Source: a virus
Reading direction: 5' to 3' (one strand)
DNA: 64,000 nucleotides
IMG/VR virus record: IMGVR_UViG_3300001847_000838
Span: 26,296 to 90,295 of that record
The first letter of the stretch is position 1. Every line of letters starts with the position of its first letter. Below, in pieces: positions 4,701 to 58,606 of the stretch. A model generated the notes under the pieces. It made no database searches, was not told the DNA's origin, and saw only the letters and a program-made list of their open reading frames with translations. A program made the position numbers and the translations under genes.

Positions 4701-5259
4701 GGCTGAGTATGAAAAAAAGCTTGCGGCAGGCATTAAAGCTAAACCTATAGATAAATCCAAGATTCTTCCCGACGAAGAATGGTTAGGTATGCATCCACTA
4801 AAAGAATATTGTATAAAAAAATCGGTACTTCCAACGCTGCCATATAGTTTGTACAATATAGTTGTTAATCACTTTATGCTAAATATTGGCACCGAAAATA
4901 AGCCTTTAGTAAGCTGTACTAAGGGAAGACCTGTAAGACTTTATAAAGGCGAACACTTACAAAAAATAGAGCAGATAACGCTTAAAGATCGCGACGTGTT
5001 CTTTGCTTCGACGGGATATGTTTTAAAAGCAGAAGAATTTTCGTATGCCAAAGGCTCTAAAAAAGCCCTAAAAATGGTAGTAGATTCAGATGGCTATATA
5101 ACTGAAAGAGTAATTTGGCCAGATTATGATACGGGAAAGCTTAAGTATCCAAAAAATCTAAAGAAAGGTACAGCCTGTCTATTGTTTTTACAAAGACGAG
5201 TGGGTAAAGATCAGACAAAAATATATGACATCAAGGTTCTTGACGAAAGCAAGTCATAA
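1705..5259 (+). CDS. dnaE: DNA polymerase III alpha subunit (family C)
   Basis: N-terminal PHP (SPHTHVESP), GPARGSAAGSL, FERFLS, PDVDID, LIKYDFL, YGFNRAHS, HhH KGIGESAA. Confidence 0.95.
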   Translation: MKLVASPHTHVESPMSGSTMESMVEQAVLLGRTHFSYTDPAYLTSAYRTYQHAIAKGLKYIPGIEVYFKDSNCDIIRGTRSERVKYYKLTLHALDQEGYQRICWLSSKERSTFVSSYGSEFPLWCWSDLEDCRGYNIAVCSSDVHDIVTKHLLIKRPDLSVKVLEKLKNIFGDKLYLSIIGNRADRAYESFVHLKFVDGTDKVIFAKDKVRTGAYKMGVPAQEIPNNFQRHQHVLAYVSGGAYHPVDKDLQFAKVISGFVKLPNGDPQMLANKLVVALGDRYGIPVLYSDYACYATQKDKPVQDVRLSSENIKEFSVRHMQSGEEAVDYMVRYLGLSEQKAYQVLNNNAKWASMFNNFSLKYEYSIPELPENRDPIAIAMDIIKINGRMRWGDPTYVDRLATEIKVLAKNGKINLIPYFFPIRDVLNHYAQNDLLTGPARGSAAGSLFMYLMGITQVDPIKYDTSFERFLSLDRVLAGNWPDVDIDLVSRDHLVGIDGRSGYLYGRWGNKAAQISTRTNMRLKSAIKDVNRYLKGEVEPDIEKLSKSLPPPPQGVSDHDFVFGYEEEGIHQEGLIEINDDLKKYALERPVEWDLVKRCLGIARQHSKHASAFVIADKPIAEIVPMFMGNVTQYEAKGVEKAKLIKYDFLVVKQLEDIQKCIKLINKKSGNPLKATHFCHNNVLTYIWDLPEDLDVYASIWEGSTESLFQINTRSMVPFVKDIKPSSIFDLSDILALVRPGPLDYVDEKTGRTMAEEYIYRKKGLSLPDIPKLAEILPKTCGVMIYQEDLTKIARILGEMRPDDAENLRRVMSKKLKVEMVKMKPLFMQGAIKNLGEETAEKIWDMMATFARYGFNRAHSISYAMITYACMYLRYYYPSEWWASVLSNASESEISNELYKYVHDRLAPPDINSSGSDMTIDYDTGKIRSKISVLKGIGESAAEAIVSQRPYTDIKDFVKKKVAGSSLTKKLIVAGVMDSLFAPNTTLSEKMLELEIATKEAEYEKKLAAGIKAKPIDKSKILPDEEWLGMHPLKEYCIKKSVLPTLPYSLYNIVVNHFMLNIGTENKPLVSCTKGRPVRLYKGEHLQKIEQITLKDRDVFFASTGYVLKAEEFSYAKGSKKALKMVVDSDGYITERVIWPDYDTGKLKYPKNLKKGTACLLFLQRRVGKDQTKIYDIKVLDESKS

Positions 5260-5269
5260 ACGCTATAAT
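5240..5269 (+). promoter_or_regulatory. sigma70-type promoter, probably giving a leaderless mRNA for the S8 protease
   Basis: TTGACG (5240-5245), 18-nt spacer, TATAAT (5264-5269); ATG at 5276 is 7 nt after the -10; no SD. Confidence 0.65.
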
Positions 5270-5275
5270 TTAAGT

Positions 5276-5947
5276 ATGAAGACATTTGTACTTTTTTTAA
5301 TTATGTCTATAAAAGCGCAGGCAGCATCACCTGTTATTGTTGCGGTTATAGATACAGGCTACAGCATACAAGATGAGTCTTTGCCTTTTTGCAAATTTGG
5401 GCATGCTACTTTTGCAGGAAACGATGTAAAAGACCGTTTAGGTCACGGAACAAACATTGCGCATATAATTAATGCACAAGTAAAAAGTTTACCTAAGGGA
5501 TCTTGGTGTATGGTTGTGATCAAATTTTTTGATAAAGATACGTCTTCCGATGAGGCTTTATCAAACAGCGTTAAAGCATTACGTTGGATTAAAAAATTAA
5601 ATGTAGATATTGTTAACCTTTCTTATGAGGGTGGATTTTCTAGCAATGCAGAAAAAGCTGCTGTTAAGGCTCTTTTGGATAAAGGGATAAAAGTTGTAGC
5701 GGCTGCTGGAAACAGAAATACAAAACCAGGGTTTCCTGCTTCTGCAGATAAGAGGGTAATAGTAGTAGGAAACCTTCAAAAAGATGGAAGTCGTCATCCT
5801 ACATCAAATTTTGGTGATAGTGTTAATAGATGGGAAGTGGGTACAGATGTTTGTGCGGGCGGTAGCTGCATGACAGGAACAAGTCAAGCTACGGCTATTG
5901 TAACAGGCAAAATACTTAAAAAAATGATAGAAAGGAAGTCTAAATGA
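5276..5947 (+). CDS. secreted subtilisin-like S8 serine protease
   Basis: signal peptide MKTFVLFLIMSIKAQA; VAVIDTG (Asp), GHGTNIA (His), AAAGN (oxyanion Asn), GTSQAT (Ser). Confidence 0.9.
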   Translation: MKTFVLFLIMSIKAQAASPVIVAVIDTGYSIQDESLPFCKFGHATFAGNDVKDRLGHGTNIAHIINAQVKSLPKGSWCMVVIKFFDKDTSSDEALSNSVKALRWIKKLNVDIVNLSYEGGFSSNAEKAAVKALLDKGIKVVAAAGNRNTKPGFPASADKRVIVVGNLQKDGSRHPTSNFGDSVNRWEVGTDVCAGGSCMTGTSQATAIVTGKILKKMIERKSK

Positions 5948-45909: not shown

Positions 45910-46247
45910 GTATCTCCTTCTTGTACAAATCTTGGACACCAAGTGCTATGTCTAGACGATTTTACAGAGGCGGCACCACATTCACATCTTTTTCTGTATT
46001 GCCAAGGCCTATGCAGCGGTTGAGGTCTAGCAGAAAAGGGTAAGTTTCTCCAATCGATTTCGGAATAGTATGCTTCCATATCGTAATCATAAAATCCATT
46101 ATTATCATACATTTGCAGCTCAAAGTATTTATCTGCATAATGTACATATTGATATTGCCTTTTAAAATCTAATGTGTCTCCGTAGTAGGAAATATCTACT
46201 TTTTCTTTTTCTCCATTACTGAACAGCATATGACCCATAACCATCAT
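45906..46247 (-). CDS. hypothetical protein with C-terminal CECGA...HS.WC zinc motif
   Basis: CECGAASVKSSRHSTWC. Confidence 0.65.
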   Translation of the reverse strand: MMVMGHMLFSNGEKEKVDISYYGDTLDFKRQYQYVHYADKYFELQMYDNNGFYDYDMEAYYSEIDWRNLPFSARPQPLHRPWQYRKRCECGAASVKSSRHSTWCPRFVQEGDT

Positions 46248-47119
46248 GTTGATGGCTCCTCAAAATAGTCTACGTTTTCATTGAAAAGCATCTTTCTATG
46301 CTGTATCCAGCCTATAAAATTTCCACTTTTAAATGTAGGATCAAGCGTAGCACAAGCTTGATGTTCTAATGGAGAAGCGTGCATTGGTTTGTGATATGCC
46401 AATCTTTCATATAAATCTATGTCTTCTTTAACTGTAGGAAACTTGTTGTCGTGGTTTAAGTATGAAACTCTGGCGCATCTTGCAGCAGATATCTTTAGCA
46501 GCATAAATAGAACTCCAGAATTGTCTCCTCTTTCTAGAAAGCTTGTTCTTTCTGCTTCTAATAAATCATCAGCAGTAACAAAAGGCAAATGCCAATCCCC
46601 TGGCTTCAACCTATTAGGTATACTTTTTGATATAACATCATACATTTTTTTTGCTAATTCATAAAATTCAGGCTGAGCATCTTTATGGTAACGCAAAGAA
46701 AAAAAATTGTTTAATTCAGTTGCCGTAACTACGACGCTTATATGAGACCACGGTTCTATTACTCTATTTGCTACTTGTTTGTGTACCCCTAACTTGTCCA
46801 ATAAAAAAGCAAATAGACAAGCAATATAACCAAGAATTTTCCACGCTATCAAAGCAATCCGTTTTTTGATAACAGAAACTTCCTTAGATGCTTGCATGCC
46901 CTTTTTGTTAGCTCCTACATGTATAGGTATTGCCATATGTTTAAGTACATTAACAATCTGTTTTTTAACAGGTATAGCTCTAGATGAAGAAGCATTTCTA
47001 CTTAATGATCTATGTGTCATCACTTCACTGTGTATAAATCTAGGGTAAGTTAAAACAAAAGTTACTATCCTTTTGCCATTAGGGCCAATAGAATCTTCTA
47101 TTACCTTGGCGTCTATCAT
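46244..47119 (-). CDS. thyX: flavin-dependent thymidylate synthase (ThyX/Thy1, phage type)
   Basis: PRFIHSEVMTHRSLSRNASSSRAIP, HKQVANRVIEP, LRYHKDAQPEF, HASPLEHQA. Confidence 0.85.
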   Translation of the reverse strand: MIDAKVIEDSIGPNGKRIVTFVLTYPRFIHSEVMTHRSLSRNASSSRAIPVKKQIVNVLKHMAIPIHVGANKKGMQASKEVSVIKKRIALIAWKILGYIACLFAFLLDKLGVHKQVANRVIEPWSHISVVVTATELNNFFSLRYHKDAQPEFYELAKKMYDVISKSIPNRLKPGDWHLPFVTADDLLEAERTSFLERGDNSGVLFMLLKISAARCARVSYLNHDNKFPTVKEDIDLYERLAYHKPMHASPLEHQACATLDPTFKSGNFIGWIQHRKMLFNENVDYFEEPST

Positions 47120-47358
47120 TCTTGCTCCTCTGCACGACGCTGGGATTCTCTTGGAGAGATATCTATCCTAACTCCTTCAATATGAACTTTTTTGCCAGAA
47201 CGAAATCTTTTTGCATAAACATAAGCAAGTTGTCGGCTAAGAAAAGTGCCATGATTTTCCCAGACATTTTTGGTACGACCAGAAGAGTTTGTTGTTTGAC
47301 CTATCAATACAAGCAATCGTTGACCAATATGTACAGTGTTTTTATTGTTGCGCTTCAT
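47116..47358 (-). CDS. hypothetical basic protein
   Basis: coupled ORF. Confidence 0.5.
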   Translation of the reverse strand: MKRNNKNTVHIGQRLLVLIGQTTNSSGRTKNVWENHGTFLSRQLAYVYAKRFRSGKKVHIEGVRIDISPRESQRRAEEQE

Positions 47359-47740
47359 CTTCTTTTTCCTCTTCTTGTTTTTCTTCTTTTGGTAACTCTA
47401 AATTATCTTTTTCTTGTTTTTCTGCTTCTACTTTTTCCTCTTCTGTAGGCGGCACAAGATCTTCAAATGCTTGCGCTTTTTCTATAGCAAGAAAACTAGA
47501 AAGTGCTTCTAGCAAATTGCCATCTTCTATAGCAGCTATATGTTCTACTGCTTCGGCAGCATATTCGTTTCCTGCTTCATAAGCACTTAATGCAACATCT
47601 GCCGTAGTAACTTCTACTGAGAACCTATAAGCCGCTACTGCTCGAGCTGCCCATTTCATTGCTGTATCATATTGTATTTTTTGGTAACTATTTTGCTGTA
47701 TTTCAAGTAAAGCTTCTTGGATCAAATCTTCACTAAGCAT
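47342..47740 (-). CDS. hypothetical helical protein
   Basis: Ala/Glu-rich; TAMKWAARAVAAY; acidic tail. Confidence 0.65.
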   Translation of the reverse strand: MLSEDLIQEALLEIQQNSYQKIQYDTAMKWAARAVAAYRFSVEVTTADVALSAYEAGNEYAAEAVEHIAAIEDGNLLEALSSFLAIEKAQAFEDLVPPTEEEKVEAEKQEKDNLELPKEEKQEEEKEDEAQQ

Positions 47741-47742
47741 GA

Positions 47743-48009
47743 TTATGCCCTCATTTTTTTAGTGCGTTGCGCACGAGGAATTAAAGTACCATTAGCAATC
47801 ATTTGGGCTCGAAGTTGAGCAACTTGTTCGCTTGTAAGATAGGCAGGAGGATCGTTGGTCTTAATAATACCCGACTTAATAAGATGTTGACGAAACTTTT
47901 CGTGTTCTTCATCGGTCATAAACCGGCGCTCAAAATAATCTGGTTTACGTGCTCCTTCTCGACGAGAAGGGCTATTTGGCGCAGGCTGTTTGTTGTTGCT
48001 GTTTTTCAT
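47743..48009 (-). CDS. small protein with two internal helical repeats
   Basis: MTDEEHEKFRQHLIKSGII and LTSEQVAQLRAQMIANGTL; GGAG SD. Confidence 0.6.
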   Translation of the reverse strand: MKNSNNKQPAPNSPSRREGARKPDYFERRFMTDEEHEKFRQHLIKSGIIKTNDPPAYLTSEQVAQLRAQMIANGTLIPRAQRTKKMRA

Positions 48010-48041
48010 TAGATACTCCAGTAAAAGTTAGACTTGCTACT

Positions 48042-48070
48042 AGAATGTCATAAGAAAATATAACTGTCAA
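48042..48070 (-). promoter_or_regulatory. sigma70-type promoter
   Basis: TTGACA, 17 nt, CATTCT. Confidence 0.6.
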
Positions 48071-48071
48071 G

Positions 48072-48953
48072 TTAGTCTAAAAAAAATTTCGATAAAGGAA
48101 ACTGATCGCCATATACGCCACAATATTGCTTCCACACACCCTTCATGCCGTTTGGGTAAATTTTGTAAAGGCGTTTATACCAAAACTTTGAGCATAAAGA
48201 TACTAACTTACTTTGTGTTGGAGAGTGTTCGTTAGCTATAACTAATGTCCAATCCATGTACCATGAATCGGGTTTACTTGAATTTCCAAAAATGGCCTGC
48301 AATAAAAGTCCGCCTGCAGCAAAGAAAGTGCCTAAAAAACTTGGTTTACGATGGGAGTTTACTTCAAGAGCAAAAGTGATAGCAGGAAATCTTCCCATCC
48401 AAGGCTCTAGCCATGGTTTGTATCCCCAAGGGGCAAATGGCCAATATAAAAGTTTGGTAAAAAAATTAGAGTTTAAATCTAGCTTATCATATAGCCTGAA
48501 CTCATTGTTTGTGTTGTTTAACCAACGATAAAGTTTAGGTATCCACCATCTTAGTTTTATAGTTCCATTAGAACCTTTTCCATAATCAAGAATATCGCTG
48601 GATACACACCCAGGAGCAAAAGTGTACATTGCAGTTAGGCCCTTATAATCATCTGGCCCTTCTTGATCTCTGTTAGTTGATGTTCTACACAAAAGAGGGT
48701 ATTTAGGTTCTAAGCAACCATATACCGCATCCATAAGTTGGATAAGAAAACTAACTATTTCATCATCATATTCAATTTTTGCTGCAATTGATGCCCTGTC
48801 AATCATTGCATACACTATTCCAGTATAAAGAACGCCGTTTAGTGTAGTAGGCTCCCCATCTGAGCCAATCGGTATTGTATGGATTAAACCGTTTTTATCT
48901 TGCCATCTTGATTTTAACTGATTTATACATTCAATTATATCGTTTTTGGTCAT
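48072..48953 (-). CDS. uncharacterised Trp/Tyr-rich protein (293 aa)
   Basis: long ORF; no family recognised; TG-A-TATTAT ends 6 nt before the ATG. Confidence 0.65.
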   Translation of the reverse strand: MTKNDIIECINQLKSRWQDKNGLIHTIPIGSDGEPTTLNGVLYTGIVYAMIDRASIAAKIEYDDEIVSFLIQLMDAVYGCLEPKYPLLCRTSTNRDQEGPDDYKGLTAMYTFAPGCVSSDILDYGKGSNGTIKLRWWIPKLYRWLNNTNNEFRLYDKLDLNSNFFTKLLYWPFAPWGYKPWLEPWMGRFPAITFALEVNSHRKPSFLGTFFAAGGLLLQAIFGNSSKPDSWYMDWTLVIANEHSPTQSKLVSLCSKFWYKRLYKIYPNGMKGVWKQYCGVYGDQFPLSKFFLD

Positions 48954-48969
48954 AACTATATAATATCAT

Positions 48970-48991
48970 AAAAAAAGCCCCTTTCGGGGCT
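48970..48991 (-). terminator. intrinsic terminator
   Basis: AGCCCC-GAAA-GGGGCT followed by a U-tract, just after the DUF932 stop. Confidence 0.85.
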
Positions 48992-49012
48992 GATGTCAGT
49001 CTTCTTTTAAAA

Positions 49013-49981
49013 TTAAGCAGCTAAAGTTACCATCGTTACTGCCGTCTCCAGCGCTTTTTTGTTGATCTGCATGCCTTGACCAAACCAGGTATTATCAAGT
49101 CTTGCTTGACTGTCTTCGCCGCGTTCGTATTGGACATACTCAGAAACCGCTTGGTAAGCGCTCCAGAAAGTTCGACGTGTTTCTGGAAGATTTTGGCCGC
49201 GTCCGTTTTCAAAAAGGTTGATAATTTTACCTTTAATACGATCTCCAGAGTTTAGCTCCTCTACATTGCCTTCAGCATCAGACATTTGCTTTTTTGTAGC
49301 AAACACAATTTTGATATACTTTTCGAGGTCAGAAGTGTTAATCTCACGGGAAGCTAACAGGCGATATTGCTCAGCTGTTGTCTCAAACTCTTGATCCGCA
49401 AGGTTCATAGTTTCGCGGATCTTTTCAAGATTGCTTACTACATTGCCACTATGCTTTACGCGAATGAGCTTAGAGGCGTTACTATCATGAGCCATTGCTA
49501 GAGTGTTGGCGCAGACTACCCGAATTGGAGTAAAACCTACCCGAACTGCAAGCGTACCATCATGGCTGTTGGAAAGAAGGACATACTTCTCCACGATATC
49601 GTTGCCCTTGATCACAAGGGCGTCGCGCTTGAGCTTGCAGAGCACAAACACGCGCTTGCCCTGGCGGAGCGAACCCGCGCACTCGATGGTGGCCTCGTTT
49701 GCGTCGAGGAAGGGCTTAAAAAAGGAAAAGGCCTCGTCGTTTTGAAGCGGCTTGTAAGCCGGGCCAACCACGCCAAGGATCGAGAGATCCGAGCTACGGC
49801 GAGTAAGGAGCGCTGGAGCCTTGTCGCCGTTATTAGCAAAGAGTGGCTCCGTGGTTACTTTCCAGTTTAGGCCCGCAGCAACAATTGCATCGTCTAGTGT
49901 GGGTGGCTCAAGAAAACGCTGGCCTAGGCTATGCCAAGGGGTTTGACCTACATACATCATTTGTTCTACTTCATGTGCCAT
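49013..49981 (-). CDS. DUF932 / TIGR03299-like phage-plasmid protein
   Basis: MAHEVE...PWHSLG, AGLNWKV, AGSLRQGKRVF, LLSNSHDGT, TPIRVVCANTL. Confidence 0.88.
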   Translation of the reverse strand: MAHEVEQMMYVGQTPWHSLGQRFLEPPTLDDAIVAAGLNWKVTTEPLFANNGDKAPALLTRRSSDLSILGVVGPAYKPLQNDEAFSFFKPFLDANEATIECAGSLRQGKRVFVLCKLKRDALVIKGNDIVEKYVLLSNSHDGTLAVRVGFTPIRVVCANTLAMAHDSNASKLIRVKHSGNVVSNLEKIRETMNLADQEFETTAEQYRLLASREINTSDLEKYIKIVFATKKQMSDAEGNVEELNSGDRIKGKIINLFENGRGQNLPETRRTFWSAYQAVSEYVQYERGEDSQARLDNTWFGQGMQINKKALETAVTMVTLAA

Positions 49982-50018
49982 TTGAACCTCCTAGAGTTCT
50001 ATTGTTTGGTACACATTT

Positions 50019-50047
50019 AGAATAACAAGGCTAACTTAATATGTCAA
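50019..50047 (-). promoter_or_regulatory. strong sigma70-type promoter
   Basis: TTGACA, 17 nt, TG-extended TATTCT; AT-rich upstream; AGGAGG SD downstream. Confidence 0.75.
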
Positions 50048-50080
50048 GTAACATATAAGTTATTGAAATAAATAAATATT

Positions 50081-50191
50081 TCATTTTTTTTTAAAAAAAT
50101 TAGACATATAAAAATAGATAATCGCAATGGGTATTCCACCCGGAATAACAAAAACCAACAAAAAGATGAGCGTTTTTTTCCATTTACTCAT
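50081..50191 (-). CDS. small membrane peptide (36 aa)
   Basis: hand-translated MSKWKKTLIFLLVFVIPGGIPIAIIYFYMSNFFKKK. Confidence 0.5.
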   Translation of the reverse strand: MSKWKKTLIFLLVFVIPGGIPIAIIYFYMSNFFKKK

Positions 50192-50396
50192 AGACGATCA
50201 TGACGCTGGCAAACCCTATATCGGAATGGCCAATCCCAAGCACCCTAGCAACGTCATCGGTCATAGGTTTTAAGTCAGTAATTACAACCTCAAGAACCTC
50301 GTCTGTTTTTTGCCTTTCTTCTACTTTTTTGCATACCTGTTTTTCTAAGTGGTCTCTTCCTGTAAAAGTTATTACTTTTATATCAAATTTTTTCAT
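50184..50396 (-). CDS. hypothetical protein
   Basis: ATGA-coupled to dut. Confidence 0.55.
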   Translation of the reverse strand: MKKFDIKVITFTGRDHLEKQVCKKVEERQKTDEVLEVVITDLKPMTDDVARVLGIGHSDIGFASVMIVYE

Positions 50397-50869
50397 TTCC
50401 CAGTGCTCCCAAATCCGCCAACTCCTCGATCAGTATCGCTAAGTTCTTCTACCATTTCAATCTCTGGGTGTTCTACTTTTTGAAAAACAAGCTGACAAAT
50501 CTTATCGCCTTTTTTGTAAATTGTAGGTGCTAAATTTGTTTTTTCTGCATCCATAGCTGCTAGTGCATCTATTTTAAACCGTATTAAGATTTCGCCACGA
50601 TAATCAGAATCTATAGTAGCAACACTATTTGCTAAGATTAAGGCAGTTTTGCTAATAGAGCTACGGGGGCGAGCTTGTGTTTCGTAGCCATGCGGCACCT
50701 CTATAGCAAGACCTGTACGATACTGAATATAATAATATATATCTTCACCTTGTTTACTTTGTACAAATTCTGGATTAGATACAGCTTTAACGTCATATCC
50801 AGAAGACCCTTCAGTTCCTCTAGTCGGTAGCTCGGCTTCTGGGATTAGCTTCTTAAATAATACTTTCAT
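50393..50869 (-). CDS. dut: trimeric dUTPase
   Basis: GSSGYD, PRSS, TIDSDYRGEI, ICQL, RGVGGFGSTG. Confidence 0.95.
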   Translation of the reverse strand: MKVLFKKLIPEAELPTRGTEGSSGYDVKAVSNPEFVQSKQGEDIYYYIQYRTGLAIEVPHGYETQARPRSSISKTALILANSVATIDSDYRGEILIRFKIDALAAMDAEKTNLAPTIYKKGDKICQLVFQKVEHPEIEMVEELSDTDRGVGGFGSTGK

Positions 50870-50877
50870 TTTATCTC

Positions 50878-51282
50878 CTAATTAAAAAGTGTTTCAAACT
50901 CAAAAGACCAAAACCAATCTCCGCGCTCTACGCTTTTGTCTACTATTATTCTAAGAACGCCATTGCCAGCCACCATTCTACCAAAACCTTTATATTCTGT
51001 ATATCTTACCCTTTTAAATGGCTGCATATCTAAGTATACAATGTTTCCAGACTTTCCATTAGATATACCAGACTCTATTTCAGCCAATACATAACCTGGC
51101 CTAACAAGCCCCAAAAAATAGCCAATTTTTTTCCAAAAACCATAAGGCCTTACAAAAAACCTTAATTCAGCAATCTGCGTAGTGCTTGTGCTGATGTCAT
51201 ATTCCATAATTGAAAGTCCGTCATCACTTTTCATTACTCTTGGTGGCACGTTAAGAAGCCTCGATTTGAGAGAGAACGGCAT
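50878..51282 (-). CDS. hypothetical protein
   Basis: ORF track. Confidence 0.55.
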   Translation of the reverse strand: MPFSLKSRLLNVPPRVMKSDDGLSIMEYDISTSTTQIAELRFFVRPYGFWKKIGYFLGLVRPGYVLAEIESGISNGKSGNIVYLDMQPFKRVRYTEYKGFGRMVAGNGVLRIIVDKSVERGDWFWSFEFETLFN

Positions 51283-51580
51283 TGATTTTATCCCTTAAAG
51301 CTAAAGCTACATCTGTGTTGTATTTTTTGTCTTTATAACCTAAAGCTTGAGCAACCTCCAAAACAGAAGCATTATTTTTCGCTAAGGAAACTCCACCTCC
51401 TGGCCCTCTATGCGATTTAGTTATACCTGCTCTTGAAAGCTTAGAAACTACTCGATCCAAAAAAGCATGTGATGCATTGATTTTGTTAGCTACATCTTTT
51501 ACTCTTACGGGCTTATCGGAAGACCGAATAGTTTGCAAAGTTGCTAAAGCGATCTCTAAATTACGGTTTATATTTAGCAC
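51251..51580 (-). CDS. Rrf2-family winged-HTH regulator lacking cysteines
   Basis: VKDVA...SHAFLDRVVSKLSRAGITKSHRGPGGGVSLAK; AGGAG SD with GTG start. Confidence 0.85.
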   Translation of the reverse strand: MLNINRNLEIALATLQTIRSSDKPVRVKDVANKINASHAFLDRVVSKLSRAGITKSHRGPGGGVSLAKNNASVLEVAQALGYKDKKYNTDVALALRDKINAVLSQIEAS

Positions 51581-51592
51581 ATTTTTCTCCTG

Positions 51593-51925
51593 TTAAAAAT
51601 TCCATCCAAAGCCTAAACTTCCTTGTTTTTTTGACCCTACAAAAATAACGTTATTACAAAAAGATCCTCCTCCTATTCGTACTGAGCCAGTTCCTCCAGA
51701 ACTTATTTTGGTGGCTATCACCCCATAAGCAAAAAGTTTATAGGCACTATTGCCAATAGTTTTTTGGGCTTCTTTTTCAGCTTTATTTTTTAAAGTGTTT
51801 TCAATTTGGTTTACAGATTGATACAATCCAGATTGAATGTTAGCAGCTTCTAGTGTTTTATTGCATACATTTTGGGGTCCAGATACTCCGGCGCAGATGG
51901 TAGCTACCATAAGCTCATTTATCAT
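51593..51925 (-). CDS. hypothetical exported/outer-membrane-like protein
   Basis: C-terminal GSLGFGWNF resembles a beta-signal; three Cys. Confidence 0.55.
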   Translation of the reverse strand: MINELMVATICAGVSGPQNVCNKTLEAANIQSGLYQSVNQIENTLKNKAEKEAQKTIGNSAYKLFAYGVIATKISSGGTGSVRIGGGSFCNNVIFVGSKKQGSLGFGWNF

Positions 51926-52130
51926 ATGATTTCCTTGGTACTTTTGCTTGCCTTTCGTTATACAACAACGGAAGAGCTACAAATGTGCTGTCCAAACAAT
52001 CAGAATTAAGTTGGGAAGCTATAGATCTGGCTTCTTTTATGGATGGAGCTATATACGTTAGCCTTAATCTGTAAGTATCTTTTTCTTTAATTTGCTCAAA
52101 AATTCCCGATTCCATATTAATCCTTATCAA
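51915..52130 (-). CDS. hypothetical protein
   Basis: coupled ORF. Confidence 0.5.
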   Translation of the reverse strand: MIRINMESGIFEQIKEKDTYRLRLTYIAPSIKEARSIASQLNSDCLDSTFVALPLLYNERQAKVPRKSYDK

Positions 52131-52254
52131 GTTTAGTATGTTTATCGACGTTTTCTTTGCTACACGATACTATGTTACCATTATCATCTTTACATGGCTG
52201 TGAACTACATCGAGTAAAAGACCAAAATATCCAAACTAATAACATCCATCTCAT
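52117..52254 (-). CDS. small putative lipoprotein (45 aa)
   Basis: hand-translated MRWMLLVWIFWSFTRCSSQPCKDDNGNIVSC... Confidence 0.5.
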   Translation of the reverse strand: MRWMLLVWIFWSFTRCSSQPCKDDNGNIVSCSKENVDKHTKLDKD

Positions 52255-52257
52255 GAT

Positions 52258-52563
52258 TTACCCTTCAATGTTCAAAACATTAAACAAAAATAAAGTGCCT
52301 ACCAAGAACAAAAGTATGCTTGCTAATCCAGAAGTAAAAGATGAAAAATAAACTAATGCTATACCAATAGTATGTGATTTTGATTTTTTTAAACCTATAT
52401 ATGATCCAGTAATCATTAATCCAGATAGTCCCCACAAAAAAAGAGAAAAAGGTGAAATTCCTTGTTTAAATTGAAGAAATAAAGTTACTATAGAGCCCAA
52501 CAATCCGCTAACCATTAACCCTCTAGCGTTTTCAACTAAAAAATAATTAAGTTTATCTAGCAT
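52258..52563 (-). CDS. multi-pass membrane protein
   Basis: about three hydrophobic segments; ATG at 52563. Confidence 0.6.
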   Translation of the reverse strand: MLDKLNYFLVENARGLMVSGLLGSIVTLFLQFKQGISPFSLFLWGLSGLMITGSYIGLKKSKSHTIGIALVYFSSFTSGLASILLFLVGTLFLFNVLNIEG

Positions 52564-52564
52564 A

Positions 52565-52900
52565 TTATTTTTCCCTCTTAAAAAGGTTATCATAAAAGTC
52601 AGTTATCTTCAAGCACATTTTTTCAAATCTAGGATCATCCATATCTTCTTTACAAGGACCATTAAAATAGTCTGGACATACTTCATCTATTTCAATCATT
52701 AGTAAATCTGCGGTATCATCCATACCTAAATGTAAAAAATCATAGATAAAAGATATTAAAGCCCTTGCTCTAACTCTAGGGGAAAAGTTGCTTTCTTGTT
52801 TGCGGTATATTTTGTACATTTTAACAACTTTATGATGAAGTTGCTTATCTGCTTCAGTAACATCACCTATAGGTAATTCAAGTGAAATCTTTTTTACCAT
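52565..52900 (-). CDS. hypothetical protein
   Basis: coupled to the PagL-like gene. Confidence 0.6.
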   Translation of the reverse strand: MVKKISLELPIGDVTEADKQLHHKVVKMYKIYRKQESNFSPRVRARALISFIYDFLHLGMDDTADLLMIEIDEVCPDYFNGPCKEDMDDPRFEKMCLKITDFYDNLFKREK

Positions 52901-53394
52901 GGTATCATTACCTGAACCCCAATAAAATCTCTGCCAAGATTTGGCATAAATATACCGGCACTAGAAAAATGTTTGTAAAATAGTCCAACTGCTACTTTTT
53001 TTTCTTGATCTCTTATTCCTATACCAACTTCTTCCACAAATTGTAATGGACCACCAAGGACTTCATCTGGGCAAGATATTGCAGCTATTCCTTGAAATAA
53101 ATTAACATACACTGAACCTGCAGATGGTTCTACTCCTAATAGCCCAGATATATAAGCTGAACTTTTTGCTCCTTGTTTTTCAGTATTATCTATCCAAAAA
53201 CCACCTTCATAACGTGTTTGAAATATAGAAAAATCATCTTGATGACCTAAAGCAACGCCTTTTTGAGAGGATGGATTTCCTTTAGCAGATACTATATACT
53301 TTAAAAAATATCCTTCTTCAGCAAAAGCTCCCCTAGAGCACAGTATACCCAACACGATCAAGCTAATTCGAAACATATTTTTGAGCCTCTTCAA
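52894..53394 (-). CDS. pagL: PagL-like lipid A 3-O-deacylase (outer-membrane beta-barrel)
   Basis: signal peptide ending AFA; LGGPLQFVEEVGIG and KHFSSAGIFMPNLGRD...IPW match the PagL HxSxAG..PNxGx(E/D) signature; aromatic C-terminal residue. Confidence 0.75.
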   Translation of the reverse strand: MKRLKNMFRISLIVLGILCSRGAFAEEGYFLKYIVSAKGNPSSQKGVALGHQDDFSIFQTRYEGGFWIDNTEKQGAKSSAYISGLLGVEPSAGSVYVNLFQGIAAISCPDEVLGGPLQFVEEVGIGIRDQEKKVAVGLFYKHFSSAGIFMPNLGRDFIGVQVMIPW

Positions 53395-53644
53395 GCGAAG
53401 ATATAATCTCTTCTGAGCTAACTATATTTTTAGATACATCTAATATTTGGCGGTCAAAATCTCTTTTGGTAGCAAGCCTTAAGCTATCATGTGATCGATA
53501 AGCTTCGTATGGTCCACTAGAATCTTGTATTTCAAAGATTACGTAATAAGTATTAACATCCAATACTTTTCCTGGGTATGTCCATTTATAAGTTTCCTGT
53601 TTATTATCACAAAGTCCGCAGACCCACTGCCCTTTTTTGAACAT
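53363..53644 (-). CDS. hypothetical protein (SH3-like N-terminus)
   Basis: MFKKGQWV...GKVLDV; AAGGAG SD. Confidence 0.6.
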   Translation of the reverse strand: MFKKGQWVCGLCDNKQETYKWTYPGKVLDVNTYYVIFEIQDSSGPYEAYRSHDSLRLATKRDFDRQILDVSKNIVSSEEIISSLEEAQKYVSN

Positions 53645-53645
53645 A

Positions 53646-54038
53646 CTACTCCTTGTATACCCTGCACCAAACACTATGCTTATTAGATCCTATCTTGTGG
53701 GCTCCGCACTCGCAGATCGGTGGAAGTTGAATTTGGGGCGTACCACTCGTATTGCTTTCCTTAAAAAAACTAGAAAGTTCTTCATAAGCTTGAACAATTT
53801 GACCGCCCTGATTTCCGCTATTGTGTATAGGCATAAGTCCTGTACGTTTATAGGTTACATTTCCATGACCTACCATAGGTACAACCTCAAAATAACAATA
53901 ATCTCCTTTGCTGTCTATCCAGCTAAAAGCTTGCTCATCCCATTGAAATGAAGCTGCGCTATTAGGCACAAAATATGTATAGGAATCACTTGGAGCAGGT
54001 TGGTATAGACCATCTGGCCACACAATCATTGGGTTCAT
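53646..54038 (-). CDS. hypothetical protein with C-terminal CECGA...HS.WC zinc motif
   Basis: CECGAHKIGSNKHSVWC. Confidence 0.65.
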   Translation of the reverse strand: MNPMIVWPDGLYQPAPSDSYTYFVPNSAASFQWDEQAFSWIDSKGDYCYFEVVPMVGHGNVTYKRTGLMPIHNSGNQGGQIVQAYEELSSFFKESNTSGTPQIQLPPICECGAHKIGSNKHSVWCRVYKE

Positions 54039-54214
54039 ACGTTTTTTCCTTTTTTGAGTTGTTTGATGCGTTTTTTTATCTTTTTAGCTTGATCGCCAAA
54101 CATAATATGTAGGCTAGAGTCTTTGGGGTGATCTTTCATGGCTCTTAAAGTTAGCTTTAGTCCTTCCTCTTCAACTTTAATCAAGTCTTTAACTTTGTTA
54201 AGTTTTTTATCCAT
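54035..54214 (-). CDS. small basic protein (59 aa)
   Basis: hand-translated MDKKLNKVKDLIK...; GGAG SD; first gene behind a promoter. Confidence 0.6.
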   Translation of the reverse strand: MDKKLNKVKDLIKVEEEGLKLTLRAMKDHPKDSSLHIMFGDQAKKIKKRIKQLKKGKNV

Positions 54215-54234
54215 AATAAATCTCCACTTTTTAT

Positions 54235-54263
54235 AGTTTACCTAAGTAGTTTAGCTAAGTCAA
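54235..54263 (-). promoter_or_regulatory. sigma70-type promoter
   Basis: TTGACT, 17 nt, TAAACT. Confidence 0.65.
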
Positions 54264-54334
54264 GTGATAGGATGATATATAGTGGAAGTCCCAACCTTTA
54301 ACAGGAAGAGAATTTTCTTTAGTAGGTAATCTAA

Positions 54335-56695
54335 ATGGCTGATTTAAAAAAGACAATGACGTTTGCAACACGAGTCGATACCACAGAGTTTGATCGAACT
54401 GTAGACCTACTTCAAAGAAAAATAAAAGACATTTATCGGGGAGCTGATACTGCACGCTTACAATTTGAAAACAGGGTACGGATGAGTCAGATTGGTATGG
54501 GACCGCAGGTTACTCCACAAGAAAGAAGAATAACTGAGATAGCCGATGTTCGTGCTCGAAACGAGTACAGACTTTTTATCAAGGAACAGGCTCGAGACAA
54601 CACAGAGATTAACAAGCAAATTGTTGAAAAAATAAAATTGTTAGAAACTGCAAAAAAATTAAACCAAGATACTTCTAAAATTGAACAACAAATTGCACAA
54701 CTTGCAGGCCAGCGTGCAGGTAAAGAAGAAGCTATAAAACGCACTTTAGAACAAGCAGAAATAATAAGACAACGACAAATAGATCCCTCTAGAATAATGA
54801 ACAGACTTTGGGAAGGTGATAAGAGGGGCGCAAAAAGAGCAGCTAAAATAGCTTTTGGAAGAATGACCGGCGCAGAAATAAGCACGATGTTTGGTGGTGC
54901 TATTGTAGGTGCAGGAGAGATGGCCGCCATAGCCGGTCAAACACCGGCTCAAGTATTAGAAAACCGCGCCTTAGCTGCCCAATTCAATAACGAACAGCTC
55001 CGGAGAGCATTTGCTGGCCAAAGATATGAAGACATATATTACAAAAAAGAAATGGGCCAAGCTGGAACGGTGGCCGGAGCAAAGGTTGGAGGTATGGCTA
55101 TTAGAGATATAGCTATAGCTTTAGCTGGTCTTGTGGCTATGGGGGCCGCTACAGTTGGTACAGCAGGAGGAGCATTAGCATTTTTAGGTGGCTTAGGCGC
55201 TGCAGGTTTTGGAGCTTACAAGCTTGGTATGGGCACTTTAGGCGGAGGATATTCGGCAGAATATCAGCAATCTCGACGTAAAGCATATGAAGAACTTAAA
55301 GAGCTTGATTTTTTTAAAAAATATGCAATGGAAGACTTGCAAAAAAACATGTATTCAAACTTACAAACTCAAAGAGCATTGGGGTTAGGTGACGAACAGC
55401 TTCGTCAAGCATATGTTGCTGGCAGTCAAGCTGGTTTTGTAAAAGAAAACATTAGAGGGGCCATGATGGAAATCTTAGGCGCAGGCGGCTCTACCAGAGG
55501 TGTAAGGGAGCTTGCGTCCACCGCGCTTGGTTTTCAGAGAGACTACGGCATCACAAACGCTTCCCAACTTCTTGGCAGGCTAAGCGGTACAGTCGGCGGC
55601 GCTGCTGAGTCCGAGCAGTCGATGATCAAGATCCTTTCTGAGGGAACCAGGATTGGCCTAGGAAAATCCGAGCTTAGGCAAGAACTTCGCACGTTCAGCG
55701 AGAACGTAGCTGATCTAGCGTACAGGGTCGGGGCCACGGGTCCTGAGCGGGTTGGAGCGCTCAGCGCCATGTCGGGCGCTTTCGTGGCTGATACTACCCC
55801 TCGCGGGCTCGAGGCTGCTAAAAACGCACAGGAAGCCCTGAGGCAAAGGGAGATCTCCCAGTCTGGCCTAAAGGCTGCAGTCGAGGCTGGCGAGATGATG
55901 AGTGATCCTGGATTGAGCAAGCTGGATACCTCACAGATGCTTAGGTTGCAGGGTATGTCGGCAACTCAGATCGCCTCGCTGTCGGGTCCAGAGCTTGAGG
56001 CCATGCTCGATAAGACCGGGTTGTCTGAGGAAGAGTTCAAGAAGAGGATGGCTTCTGCCAAGGTTAGCGCTATCACTGCAGGGGCGCCAGGAGCCAAGCA
56101 GGAACTCTACGACTTCCAGAAGAAGACAAAAGGAAAATCTTACAAAGATATCATGAGCGATCCTCAGCTTCGGATTCAAGCTGGTCACCTACAAAGCATG
56201 TTTGGCGGCCAGATACTTCCTGCAGGCATGGAAACTCCAGAAGTTCAATCTTTTACACAAGGTATAGTAACAAGGGAAGCGGCAGTTGCTGATTATTATC
56301 AGACTCAAGGTGTAGAAGAGTATAGAAAACGTGTTAGAGGCAAAGGAAGAGCCCCTGAGCTTGATCAGTATGCTTCTCCGATGCCAGAGGTCTCACCGGA
56401 AACGTTGGCAGACAAGCAAGAGCGTGCTGCCGCCGCCCAGCAGCTGTCGGCCCTGGAGTTACAGAAACTCTTTGGGGAAGATTTTAAGAACAGCGTGGAT
56501 GACGCTAGGATAGCTGCCGTTAAGTTTGCCACCGCTTTGACGGAAGCTGCTGATATGATAAGAAAAGGCGATCCGGAAGGTCAAAAAAGGATGAACTGGA
56601 TGATGGAAAATCCCCAAGCTGACCCGGAAGCTTATAGGCGCCAACAACAACCCCAAGCAACCACACCTCAAGAATACTATTCTACAGATAGATAG
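54335..56695 (+). CDS. putative tape measure protein
   Basis: helical Ala/Gly/Gln-rich with a hydrophobic Gly-rich central segment; precedes hub and spike genes. Confidence 0.7.
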   Translation: MADLKKTMTFATRVDTTEFDRTVDLLQRKIKDIYRGADTARLQFENRVRMSQIGMGPQVTPQERRITEIADVRARNEYRLFIKEQARDNTEINKQIVEKIKLLETAKKLNQDTSKIEQQIAQLAGQRAGKEEAIKRTLEQAEIIRQRQIDPSRIMNRLWEGDKRGAKRAAKIAFGRMTGAEISTMFGGAIVGAGEMAAIAGQTPAQVLENRALAAQFNNEQLRRAFAGQRYEDIYYKKEMGQAGTVAGAKVGGMAIRDIAIALAGLVAMGAATVGTAGGALAFLGGLGAAGFGAYKLGMGTLGGGYSAEYQQSRRKAYEELKELDFFKKYAMEDLQKNMYSNLQTQRALGLGDEQLRQAYVAGSQAGFVKENIRGAMMEILGAGGSTRGVRELASTALGFQRDYGITNASQLLGRLSGTVGGAAESEQSMIKILSEGTRIGLGKSELRQELRTFSENVADLAYRVGATGPERVGALSAMSGAFVADTTPRGLEAAKNAQEALRQREISQSGLKAAVEAGEMMSDPGLSKLDTSQMLRLQGMSATQIASLSGPELEAMLDKTGLSEEEFKKRMASAKVSAITAGAPGAKQELYDFQKKTKGKSYKDIMSDPQLRIQAGHLQSMFGGQILPAGMETPEVQSFTQGIVTREAAVADYYQTQGVEEYRKRVRGKGRAPELDQYASPMPEVSPETLADKQERAAAAQQLSALELQKLFGEDFKNSVDDARIAAVKFATALTEAADMIRKGDPEGQKRMNWMMENPQADPEAYRRQQQPQATTPQEYYSTDR

Positions 56696-56707
56696 AACTG
56701 GCGGATT

Positions 56708-58606
56708 ATGAGCAAGGCTTACGTAGTTGATGTAGGTAAAAATAGTGATGATTCACATCAGATGAATCCAGCCTATATGTTGACGTTCGTTAGATGGACT
56801 AACCGCGACACCCTCCGGATGCAGTCCTCGGGTAGCGAGGGCGACCTTGGCGTCACAAAGCCCATGGTGGTGATCAACGACTGCGTAAGCCTTACCACCA
56901 GCATGGCGAAGTCCCAGCAGACCCCATCGGTGAACATGGTGCTCAGGGCAGGAGACATCAACTACGAGACTGCCGTAGCTCCCGGCGACTTTGTGTTTGT
57001 AAACATGATCCTGGACGACGACAAGCGCAAGGATGGAAAGATCGTAGAGGGTAAGCTCCAGGACCTGTATGATAGGGCGTCCTCGGGCAAGCACATCAAT
57101 GGCAAGAACGACGGCTTCAAGGGTTTCTACAAGATCCAGTCGGTGCGCAGGACCATTAGCGTTGACCCCAACAGCGGCACCAAGATCGTCTTTTTCAGAA
57201 TTGACGGCTTCGCCTTCACCGAGTTCAACAACAACATCTACTTCAACCCGTACCTGGTGAACGACCCCAAATTTGCTGCGGATGCCATCTACTCGTCGAA
57301 TATCGGCCTGGACTACAAGCAGTTTATCGACAGCCAGAAGGAGAAATGCGGAGCCTCCGTAGAGTTCACCCTCAGGTTCTTCATCGAGAAGTTCCTTGGC
57401 AGAGGCAACGGTGAGATGACCACCACGATCAAGAACTCGATGGGCAAGAGGGAGGTCCAGACGTCGCAGAACTCCCCGTTTAAGGTACCGTCCCTGACAG
57501 GCAGCCTGCTCGGCATCAAAGCGGCTACCGCAGAGGGTCTGGCGGCGAAGGACCTCTACACCTATCTGTTCGGCATCCAGAACTACGACCGTTCCGATAG
57601 CCTGGAGTCAGGGATGAACCCTTTAGCCACGAACTCGGGTGGCAGGTTCTTCCTTACAGGTCAGGGTTGCCAGGGTAACGTGCTGCTGAAGCCCGAGTAC
57701 TGGAACCAGGTACCGGTATGGTCAATCTTGCGCCAGTACATCAACGCCCCGATCAACGAGTTGTACCCCTGCTTTAGGGTGTCGCCAGAAGGGTTTGTCG
57801 TACCTACCCTTGTTCTGAGGCAGATCCCCTTTAGCACCGAAGCCTATGGTGGAACTTGCACCAAGTTTCTCAACCTTCCCCGCTGGAAGATCGACCCCGA
57901 GCTGATCTACGACCTGGACATTGGCAGGGACGAGGCTGCGAAGATCAACTTCGTGCAGGTGTTCGGCATCCAGGGCGGCATCGAGAAGCCCGACGCCAAC
58001 GTGAGCTTCCAGATCGCCAGGGGCAACTACGTGGCCGATACCGCCGACATCACCCGTGCCGGTCTGAGGCCATACGTCCTAACCTCGAGCTTCGACTGGC
58101 CCAACGTCAAGGGCGACAGCCTCACGTTCCACGCCCCCACATGGGCAAGGCTGCTGGCAGATTCCCTGGTCGGCGGACACCTGAAAATGAACGGGACCGT
58201 GACATGCGCTGGAATCCAGGCCCCGATCGCCTGCGGGGACAACTTTGAGATTGACGGGATCGTATACCACATCGAGAGCGTCATGCACACGATGTCCATT
58301 GACAGCAGCGGCAAGAAGAAGTTCCGTACTACCTTGCAGCTGTCTAACGGCATCGATAAAAGCTACACAGCAAAGCAACCGCGATATGCTGATATGGAGT
58401 TTACGGACATAGAGCTTGAGCGTCAAAAGCAGTTCGCGAACGACCAGCTGTTCAACGGCTTCTCCGATGAGCAGATCCTGCCCGACAGGAAGAGCGGCAT
58501 CAAGCTAAAGTCCCACAACAACTCGTTCTTGCTGCCCAAGAGGAAGACCGCGCAGTCTCCCTCCAACAGCAAGGTTGACAAAAAGAGCAAGAGGTTGATC
58601 AAATGA
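56708..58606 (+). CDS. baseplate hub (gp27-like)
   Basis: TAVAPGDFVFV, GFYKIQSVRR, HLKMNGTVTCAGIQAPIACGD...YHIESVMH...TTLQLSNG. Confidence 0.7.
   Translation: MSKAYVVDVGKNSDDSHQMNPAYMLTFVRWTNRDTLRMQSSGSEGDLGVTKPMVVINDCVSLTTSMAKSQQTPSVNMVLRAGDINYETAVAPGDFVFVNMILDDDKRKDGKIVEGKLQDLYDRASSGKHINGKNDGFKGFYKIQSVRRTISVDPNSGTKIVFFRIDGFAFTEFNNNIYFNPYLVNDPKFAADAIYSSNIGLDYKQFIDSQKEKCGASVEFTLRFFIEKFLGRGNGEMTTTIKNSMGKREVQTSQNSPFKVPSLTGSLLGIKAATAEGLAAKDLYTYLFGIQNYDRSDSLESGMNPLATNSGGRFFLTGQGCQGNVLLKPEYWNQVPVWSILRQYINAPINELYPCFRVSPEGFVVPTLVLRQIPFSTEAYGGTCTKFLNLPRWKIDPELIYDLDIGRDEAAKINFVQVFGIQGGIEKPDANVSFQIARGNYVADTADITRAGLRPYVLTSSFDWPNVKGDSLTFHAPTWARLLADSLVGGHLKMNGTVTCAGIQAPIACGDNFEIDGIVYHIESVMHTMSIDSSGKKKFRTTLQLSNGIDKSYTAKQPRYADMEFTDIELERQKQFANDQLFNGFSDEQILPDRKSGIKLKSHNNSFLLPKRKTAQSPSNSKVDKKSKRLIK

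Follow-up and report, generated by a model that had tools for sequence, protein, structure and literature searches.

The window, by which we mean the whole 64,000-nt stretch of DNA analysed, is part of a viral record consisting of a single 121,191-bp contig with a CheckV completeness of about 75%. Its minus strand carries a gene for a PagL-like protein within a block of small leftward genes. The features of the gene and of the block are as follows (window positions).

52894–53376, minus strand: PagL-like gene, 160 codons plus stop, encoding the predicted precursor of an eight-stranded outer-membrane barrel
53386–53390, minus strand: Shine–Dalgarno AGAGG, 9 nt upstream of the ATG at 53376, read directly from the sequence
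53320–53376, minus strand: putative Sec signal peptide, residues 1–19 (MFRISLIVLGILCSRGAFA), with an A-F-A cleavage motif, then EEGY
53038–53070, minus strand: conserved block PDEVLGGPLQF, residues 103–113, predicted extracellular loop 3 and start of strand 6
52927–52971, minus strand: putative catalytic block H-F-S-S-A-G-I-F-M-P-N-L-G-R-D, residues 136–150, with His136, Ser138, Asn146, and Asp150
53363–53674, minus strand: upstream ORFan gene, 93–103 aa, the end of which overlaps the PagL start by 14 nt
52565–52900, minus strand: downstream ORFan gene, 111 aa, the start of which overlaps the PagL stop by 7 nt
46244–54214, minus strand: leftward block of small genes including the PagL-like gene, divergent from the tape-measure/hub/baseplate operon that starts at 54335
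51251–51580, minus strand: Rrf2, in the leftward block
50393–50869, minus strand: dUTPase, in the leftward block
49013–49981, minus strand: DUF932, in the leftward block
46244–47119, minus strand: ThyX, in the leftward block

The first-pass annotation, which had read this gene as a phage-encoded PagL-like lipid A 3-O-deacylase, took its open reading frame as 52894–53394. The frame on the minus strand and all the strings quoted from it are present, among them the C-terminal strings KHFSSAGIFMPNLGRDFIGVQVMIPW and LGGPLQFVEEVGIG, but the start most likely lies at ATG 53376 and not at TTG 53394, which would add six residues. The ATG is preferred because of the ribosome-binding motif upstream of it and because the 160-aa form is the one in public gene calls, where an identical protein of this length occurs on at least 23 contigs.

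Since both ends of the gene overlap flanking ORFans, we place it in a leftward operon-like block; the upstream ORFan, which overlaps the PagL start on the same strand, looks like a member of the same operon. Neither ORFan had a family match in profile searches, and a homolog of the upstream one precedes PagL in three related contigs (L003, L005, and L006). The wider surroundings encode baseplate, head-decoration, and tail proteins, dUTPase, ThyX, an Rrf2 regulator, and a DnaE polymerase.

Metatranscriptome contigs from two runs cover positions 53126–53344 and 52835–53028 at 100% identity, which is a weak indication that the PagL gene is transcribed, as DNA carry-over could also produce such contigs. 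A scan of 50000–54500 for sigma-70 promoters and terminators gave nothing better than shuffled sequence.

Two further small leftward ORFs of this region were noted. The first, an ORFan of 111 aa at 52258–52593 (minus strand), lies two genes downstream of PagL, has several hydrophobic segments, and exceeds the rest of the region in contig depth in each of the four metatranscriptome runs; it had no family match, and BLAST found no homolog of it in the relatives. The second, of 45 aa at 52117–52254 (minus strand), has a hydrophobic N-terminus and three cysteines (MRWMLLVWIFWSFTRCSSQPC...) and could encode a short peptide that is secreted or resembles a lipoprotein; it is called as a gene in one public contig and not in another.

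Family assignment, predicted fold, and putative active site

The window protein matched the Pfam PagL family (PF09411) with 37.3 bits against a gathering cut-off of 23 (E 3.6e-9, profile positions 43–133 of 136), so that the profile search suggested in the first-pass annotation came out in its favour; the match spans residues 73–156 only, that is, the C-terminal half of the protein. A phmmer search against all PDB chains returned one meaningful match, 2erv_A, the crystal structure of Pseudomonas aeruginosa PagL (E 0.011). In this alignment, LGGPLQFVEEVGIG pairs without gaps with LGSSLNFEDRIGAG, and KHFSSAGIFMPNLGRD with IHYSNAGLKQPNDGIE, reproducing in both blocks the gapless alignment given in the first-pass annotation. 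The overall identity to 2ERV is 18–20%.

For a wider view of the family, 1.84 billion cluster representatives were searched exhaustively with a profile, which yielded 447 proteins at E ≤ 1e-3, nearly all of them 150–190 aa long, and 147 of these were aligned for conservation counts. Pfam PagL is matched independently (E ≤ 1e-3) by 145 of the 147. NCBIfam has no family for the window protein, nor for 146 of the 147 relatives. In PHROGs, the window protein has a weak match (E 0.013) to phrog_15758, a group of unknown function.

The AF2 model built on the 147-sequence alignment has a mean pLDDT of 95 and a pTM of 0.84. It consists of a signal helix at residues 2–13 and exactly eight strands, the first of which begins at residue 22, in accordance with the signal peptide (MFRISLIVLGILCSRGAFA, then EE), the alternating beta-strand pattern, and the eight-stranded barrel put forward from the sequence. 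Compared with the PDB by Foldseek, the model ranks 2erv_B and 2erv_A at the top (E 3e-6 and 2e-5, TM 0.65–0.71), and the generic small barrels NspA and OmpA below them. The top AFDB cluster matches are named acyloxyacyl hydrolase, and 98 of the 100 nearest ESM Atlas clusters belong to PagL or acyloxyacyl hydrolase families.

Signals for outer-membrane targeting can also be recognised in the sequence: the N-terminal helix, the AFA before EE, and an aromatic C-terminus. Cleavage of the signal peptide would occur after residue 19 by the AxA rule. The C-terminal residue is W in the window protein and F, L, W, or Y in 126 of the 147 relatives.

PagL is an eight-stranded barrel whose triad is Ser-His-Glu and whose oxyanion hole includes a conserved Asn (PMC4402001). 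In the phmmer alignment to 2erv_A, His136, Ser138, Asn146, and Asp150 (160-aa numbering) fall on the H-x-S ... N ... E positions of PagL, so that all four residues proposed earlier, namely the catalytic His and Ser, the oxyanion Asn, and an Asp in place of Glu, are found where they were expected. The replacement of Glu by Asp is a conservative change. The block PDEVLGGPLQF matches the PagL block LGSSLNF in the same alignment, and its residues D104, L107, and F113 are almost invariant among the 147 relatives.

Outer-membrane barrels usually have both termini in the periplasm. With this topology and the strand boundaries of the model, strand 7 is predicted to carry His136 and Ser138 at its extracellular end, loop 4 to contain Asn146, and strand 8 to have Asp150 at its top, level with the outer leaflet.

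The four residues are invariant in the ten closest homologs (45–66% identity). Across all 147 relatives, His136 is kept in 146, Ser138 in 145, and Asn146 in 145, while position 150 is Asp or Glu in 122 and Asn in 23. The bacterial PagLs sampled have the His, Ser, and Asn in 42 of 42 cases each, and the position of the triad acid varies in them as well (N in 19, D in 11, and E in 11). That His, Ser, and Asn persist in sequences with as little as about 25% identity speaks for retained catalysis and against a purely structural barrel.

A structural barrel would nevertheless have precedents. The protein might have inherited the motifs and serve, with no catalysis, in receptor masking, in superinfection exclusion, or as a pore; many small phage outer-membrane barrels have no known enzymatic role, Pfam holds a family of cyanophage OMP barrels (PF24653), and BFVD contains 17 viral barrel proteins that match at E ≤ 1e-3, all at 10–16% identity. 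Against this, the mean column identity of the 147-sequence alignment is only about 22%, and at such a level the persistence of His, Ser, and Asn in 145 or 146 members would hardly be expected unless catalysis were under selection. We therefore regard a non-catalytic barrel as quite improbable.

Overall, four lines of evidence support membership of the window protein in the PagL family: its Pfam match, its predicted fold, its catalytic residues, and the conservation across the family. In sequence and modelled fold, the protein has the profile match, the eight-stranded barrel, the H-x-S motif, the Asn, the acidic residue, and the export signals by which a PagL is recognised. We consider it probable on these grounds that the gene encodes a working PagL-family outer-membrane serine esterase carried by a large tailed phage.

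Origin of the gene and its phage-borne relatives

A PagL gene on a metagenomic contig calls for a consideration of host DNA, either a bacterial pagL joined to the phage by misassembly or prophage cargo (a moron) that serves the lysogen. PagL is common in bacteria, with a Pfam match in 104 of 401 Pseudomonadota genomes, and the contig, being about 75% complete, could have an integrase in its missing part; an unrelated PagL-bearing contig (L029) does have a gene with a Phage_integrase domain. The evidence from the locus itself points the other way. The same gene context recurs on 23 contigs from several samples, the source runs being aquatic and freshwater metagenomes. The PagL gene adjoins the tape-measure/hub/baseplate module in five relatives (L006, L007, L008, L010, and L016) with 36–53% protein identity, and the order PagL ... 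Rrf2 ... dUTPase is kept on the smaller contigs L003 and L005. Its GC content of 35.6% and GC3 of 16% are like those of its AT-rich neighbours, and the start and stop overlaps tie it to flanking phage ORFans.

The recurring context, the synteny in diverged relatives, and the neighbour-like composition rule out misassembled host DNA, the circumstance that the first-pass annotation had named as fatal to its reading, and together with the viral gene content they indicate a phage origin. As to prophage cargo, no tyrosine integrase was found in the 121 kb of the contig, and the nearest cultured relative, Myxococcus phage Mx1, is a virulent myovirus. Taken together, host DNA in either form is the least probable of the explanations weighed here, and we give it very little credence.

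Mx1 is the only cultured relative that we found: its DnaE is 36.5% identical, and it is the sole match of the hub protein among GenBank phages. PagL was not found in Mx1. We take the carrier to be a large, probably virulent tailed phage that infects a Gram-negative bacterium of fresh water. Lysogeny was considered and set aside because of the missing tyrosine integrase, which is weak evidence in a contig about 75% complete. There are no terminal repeats on the contig. Its single tRNA, a tRNA-Ile with the anticodon TAT (G000:C1:94571-94647, outside the window), reads AUA and therefore fits an AT-rich phage.

The PagL-like gene is not a one-off and is part of a sizeable phage-borne clade. In the survey of viral databases, which had been proposed as a further check, relatives of the window protein were found encoded on 18 IMG/VR viral contigs of up to 176 kb. 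With a profile built from the clade's own sequences, which bears on the gap to the bacterial scores, homologs on viral or phage-like contigs all score 112–204 bits and the bacterial PagLs sampled 26–55 bits; the best score in 401 Pseudomonadota genomes is 53 bits, and in 301 genomes of a second phylum it is 41 bits. No close relative of the window protein was present in the 702 bacterial genomes sampled, and a scan of 185,579 species genomes with a motif from the close alignment recovered only two bacterial PagLs of the ordinary kind. A maximum-likelihood tree of 137 sequences (a quick search, unrooted, with a bacterial sample from one phylum) places the 42 bacterial PagLs on one side of a branch with an SH-aLRT of 98; on the other side, members from viral contigs are mixed with metagenomic ones.

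The clade and the bacterial PagLs share the His, Ser, and Asn, as well as G148, F113, and P145. Near-invariant in the clade only are K39, E57, G59, D63, D104, D123, and a basic residue at position 149 (R149 in the window protein), which is V, I, or L in bacterial PagLs. As these signature residues are absent from the bacterial enzymes, the specificity for substrate or position may differ.

The protein could accordingly be an active outer-membrane esterase of PagL fold that cleaves something other than the 3-O-acyl chain of lipid A, such as another lipid A ester or another outer-leaflet lipid of the host. The separation of the clade from the bacterial PagLs, both in profile score and in the tree, and its own invariant residues, among them the basic residue at 149, speak for such a change. 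The residues that define catalysis and the loop 3 block, however, are common to the bacterial PagLs, and no other substrate of the PagL family is known (general knowledge; PMC4402001). We consider a different substrate unlikely, though less so than a structural barrel or host DNA, and retain lipid A 3-O-deacylation as the preferred reading.

The four clade representatives on longer contigs that were inspected all lie in phage-like DNA, of types other than the window phage.

L028: PagL-bearing contig of 94 kb with small ORFs and phage domains
L029: PagL-bearing contig with RNR, ThyX, and Pyr_excise, and also the Phage_integrase domain gene
L030: PagL-bearing contig with Terminase_6N and a P22-like portal
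L031: PagL-bearing contig with DNA polymerase A and Rad52, and a phage lysozyme two genes from the PagL homolog

Several PagL-bearing contigs have nothing else in common with the window phage within 10 kb on either side. The GC content of such contigs ranges from 30 to 62%, and their hosts are therefore probably diverse. Among the sequences examined, the clade occurs on phage contigs only, which suggests that these phages edit the lipid A anchor of host LPS during infection. The broader proposition, that the approximately 450 representatives form a phage-specific branch of PagL by which many unrelated tailed phages of diverse Gram-negative hosts would deacylate host lipid A, we regard as evenly balanced between true and false.

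Proposed role and comparison with known systems

On the reading as a lipid A deacylase, the course of events would be as follows. The PagL gene would be transcribed together with the small leftward genes, dUTPase and ThyX among them, probably in the early or middle phase of infection. The precursor would be exported via Sec and lose its 19-residue signal peptide, and the mature protein of about 141 aa would be inserted by the host BAM machinery as the predicted eight-stranded barrel with its aromatic end. The LPS anchor of the infected cell would then become under-acylated. The first-ranked purpose would be a change in the cell surface or a shedding of vesicles, whereby later phages or the phage's own progeny may not be lost on infected cells and debris.

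The early or middle timing of the leftward block is suggested by its nucleotide-metabolism genes. Expression before late lysis is favoured by this grouping, by the divergence from the tail operon, by the distance of about 18 kb to the only recognisable muralytic gene of the contig, which has an SLT domain, and by the lack of lysis domains nearby; such timing would leave time for assembly in the outer membrane. A place in a lysis cassette was considered for the PagL gene of the window phage and rejected, as the ten neighbouring ORFs belong to no muralytic, holin, or spanin family. No Phage_lysozyme domain occurs in the contig. In L031, the phage lysozyme stands two genes from the PagL homolog, which hints at a role in lysis there. 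The SLT-domain protein itself (137 aa, 74.8 bits) is encoded at contig G000:C1:97677-97964, outside the window, and homologs of it lie within 1.2–10 kb of PagL in L029 and L030.

As for effects on the cell, PagL, when expressed, induces the formation of vesicles in Salmonella (PMC4958258), and the acylation state of lipid A changes the susceptibility of P. aeruginosa to the RNA phage PP7 (PMC10783630). Provided that the enzyme is active, the change in the surface or the shedding of vesicles is the role that we put first, at a little below an even chance. A loosening of the outer membrane ahead of lysis is clearly less probable, and some other role is slightly less probable again.

The closest known systems are the PagLs of Pseudomonas aeruginosa (2ERV), Salmonella, and Bordetella, enzymes that remove a fatty acid from lipid A, which belong to the same Pfam family and have the same barrel and the same H-x-S ... 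N ... acidic layout. They also share with the phage protein a signal peptide and an aromatic C-terminus, and are of similar length (about 150 aa versus about 141 aa for the mature phage protein). In contrast to these enzymes, which are encoded on the chromosome under PhoPQ-type control, the protein described here is encoded by a phage; it differs from the 2ERV enzyme in most of its sequence, in the Asp in place of the triad Glu, and in the residues peculiar to its clade.

Among phage proteins, the OMP of Synechococcus phage S-CBWM1 and the Phage_OMP family PF24653 are likewise phage-borne small barrels of similar size with a signal peptide. However, only one of the 147 family members matches PF24653, and no catalytic motif is known for Phage_OMP barrels. 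The structural matches in BFVD to small phage barrels have TM values of 0.5–0.69 and only 7–16% identity, and none of them is named or recognised as a PagL. The PHROGs group phrog_15758 is matched by 28 of the 147 members (best E 2.3e-6), but the matches are weak and partial and the group is unannotated; it may represent PagL-like proteins of known phages or prophages that have been catalogued without a function.

The sugars of LPS are known targets of modification by phages. The O-antigen glucosyltransferases and acetylases of temperate phages, enzymes of lysogenic conversion, change the host LPS and classically block the adsorption of further phages; they work from the inner membrane, on the sugars of the O antigen. 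The window protein, in contrast, would sit in the outer membrane and have the lipid anchor as its target, and it belongs to a phage with no integrase found in 121 kb.

The first-pass annotation knew of no characterised phage-encoded example, and this still holds for the 50,697 GenBank phage records and the literature searched. Against these records, neither megablast of 50000–58000 nor tblastn of the window protein and three divergent family members gave a match. The literature searched describes no phage-encoded lipid A 3-O-deacylase, no lipid A deacylase on viral contigs, and no enzyme by which a phage modifies the acyl chains of lipid A; the relevant publications found on PagL and phages were host-side studies. 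The novelty is thus in the carrier and in the reason for carrying the gene, as the enzyme family, the fold, and the chemistry are already known.

If the proposed reading is true, phages would commonly remodel the lipid anchor of LPS in addition to its sugars, a strategy so far undescribed, with superinfection exclusion, the release of decoy vesicles, or easier escape through the outer membrane as possible uses. A conserved phage-borne PagL-like clade would add a new layer to the interplay between phages and host surfaces, possibly through receptor masking, vesiculation, or breaching of the outer membrane, and would supply small, diverse lipid A deacylases for study.

Three observations concern other genes of the window phage. 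Homologs of an S8 (subtilisin-like) secreted protease lie 0.5–0.7 kb downstream of PagL in two contigs (L009:11117-11809 and L029:11077-11808), and the window phage has its own S8 protease at window positions 5225–5947, about 47 kb from PagL, which hints that PagL and the protease are a recurring pair of envelope-directed secreted enzymes. The DUF932 gene at 49013–49981 (minus strand) has a GC content of 48% and a GC3 of 48%, compared with about 36% and about 20–27% for its neighbours, and its product is 65–66% identical to homologs in L006 and in L030, a contig with a P22-type portal that is otherwise unrelated; this suggests a highly conserved gene that was exchanged recently. Finally, the hub gene at 56708–58606 (plus strand) has a GC content of 55% and a GC3 of 78%, compared with a GC3 of 16–27% in the adjacent leftward genes, which agrees with a separate earlier note that had reported a GC-rich tract in the hub and spike region.
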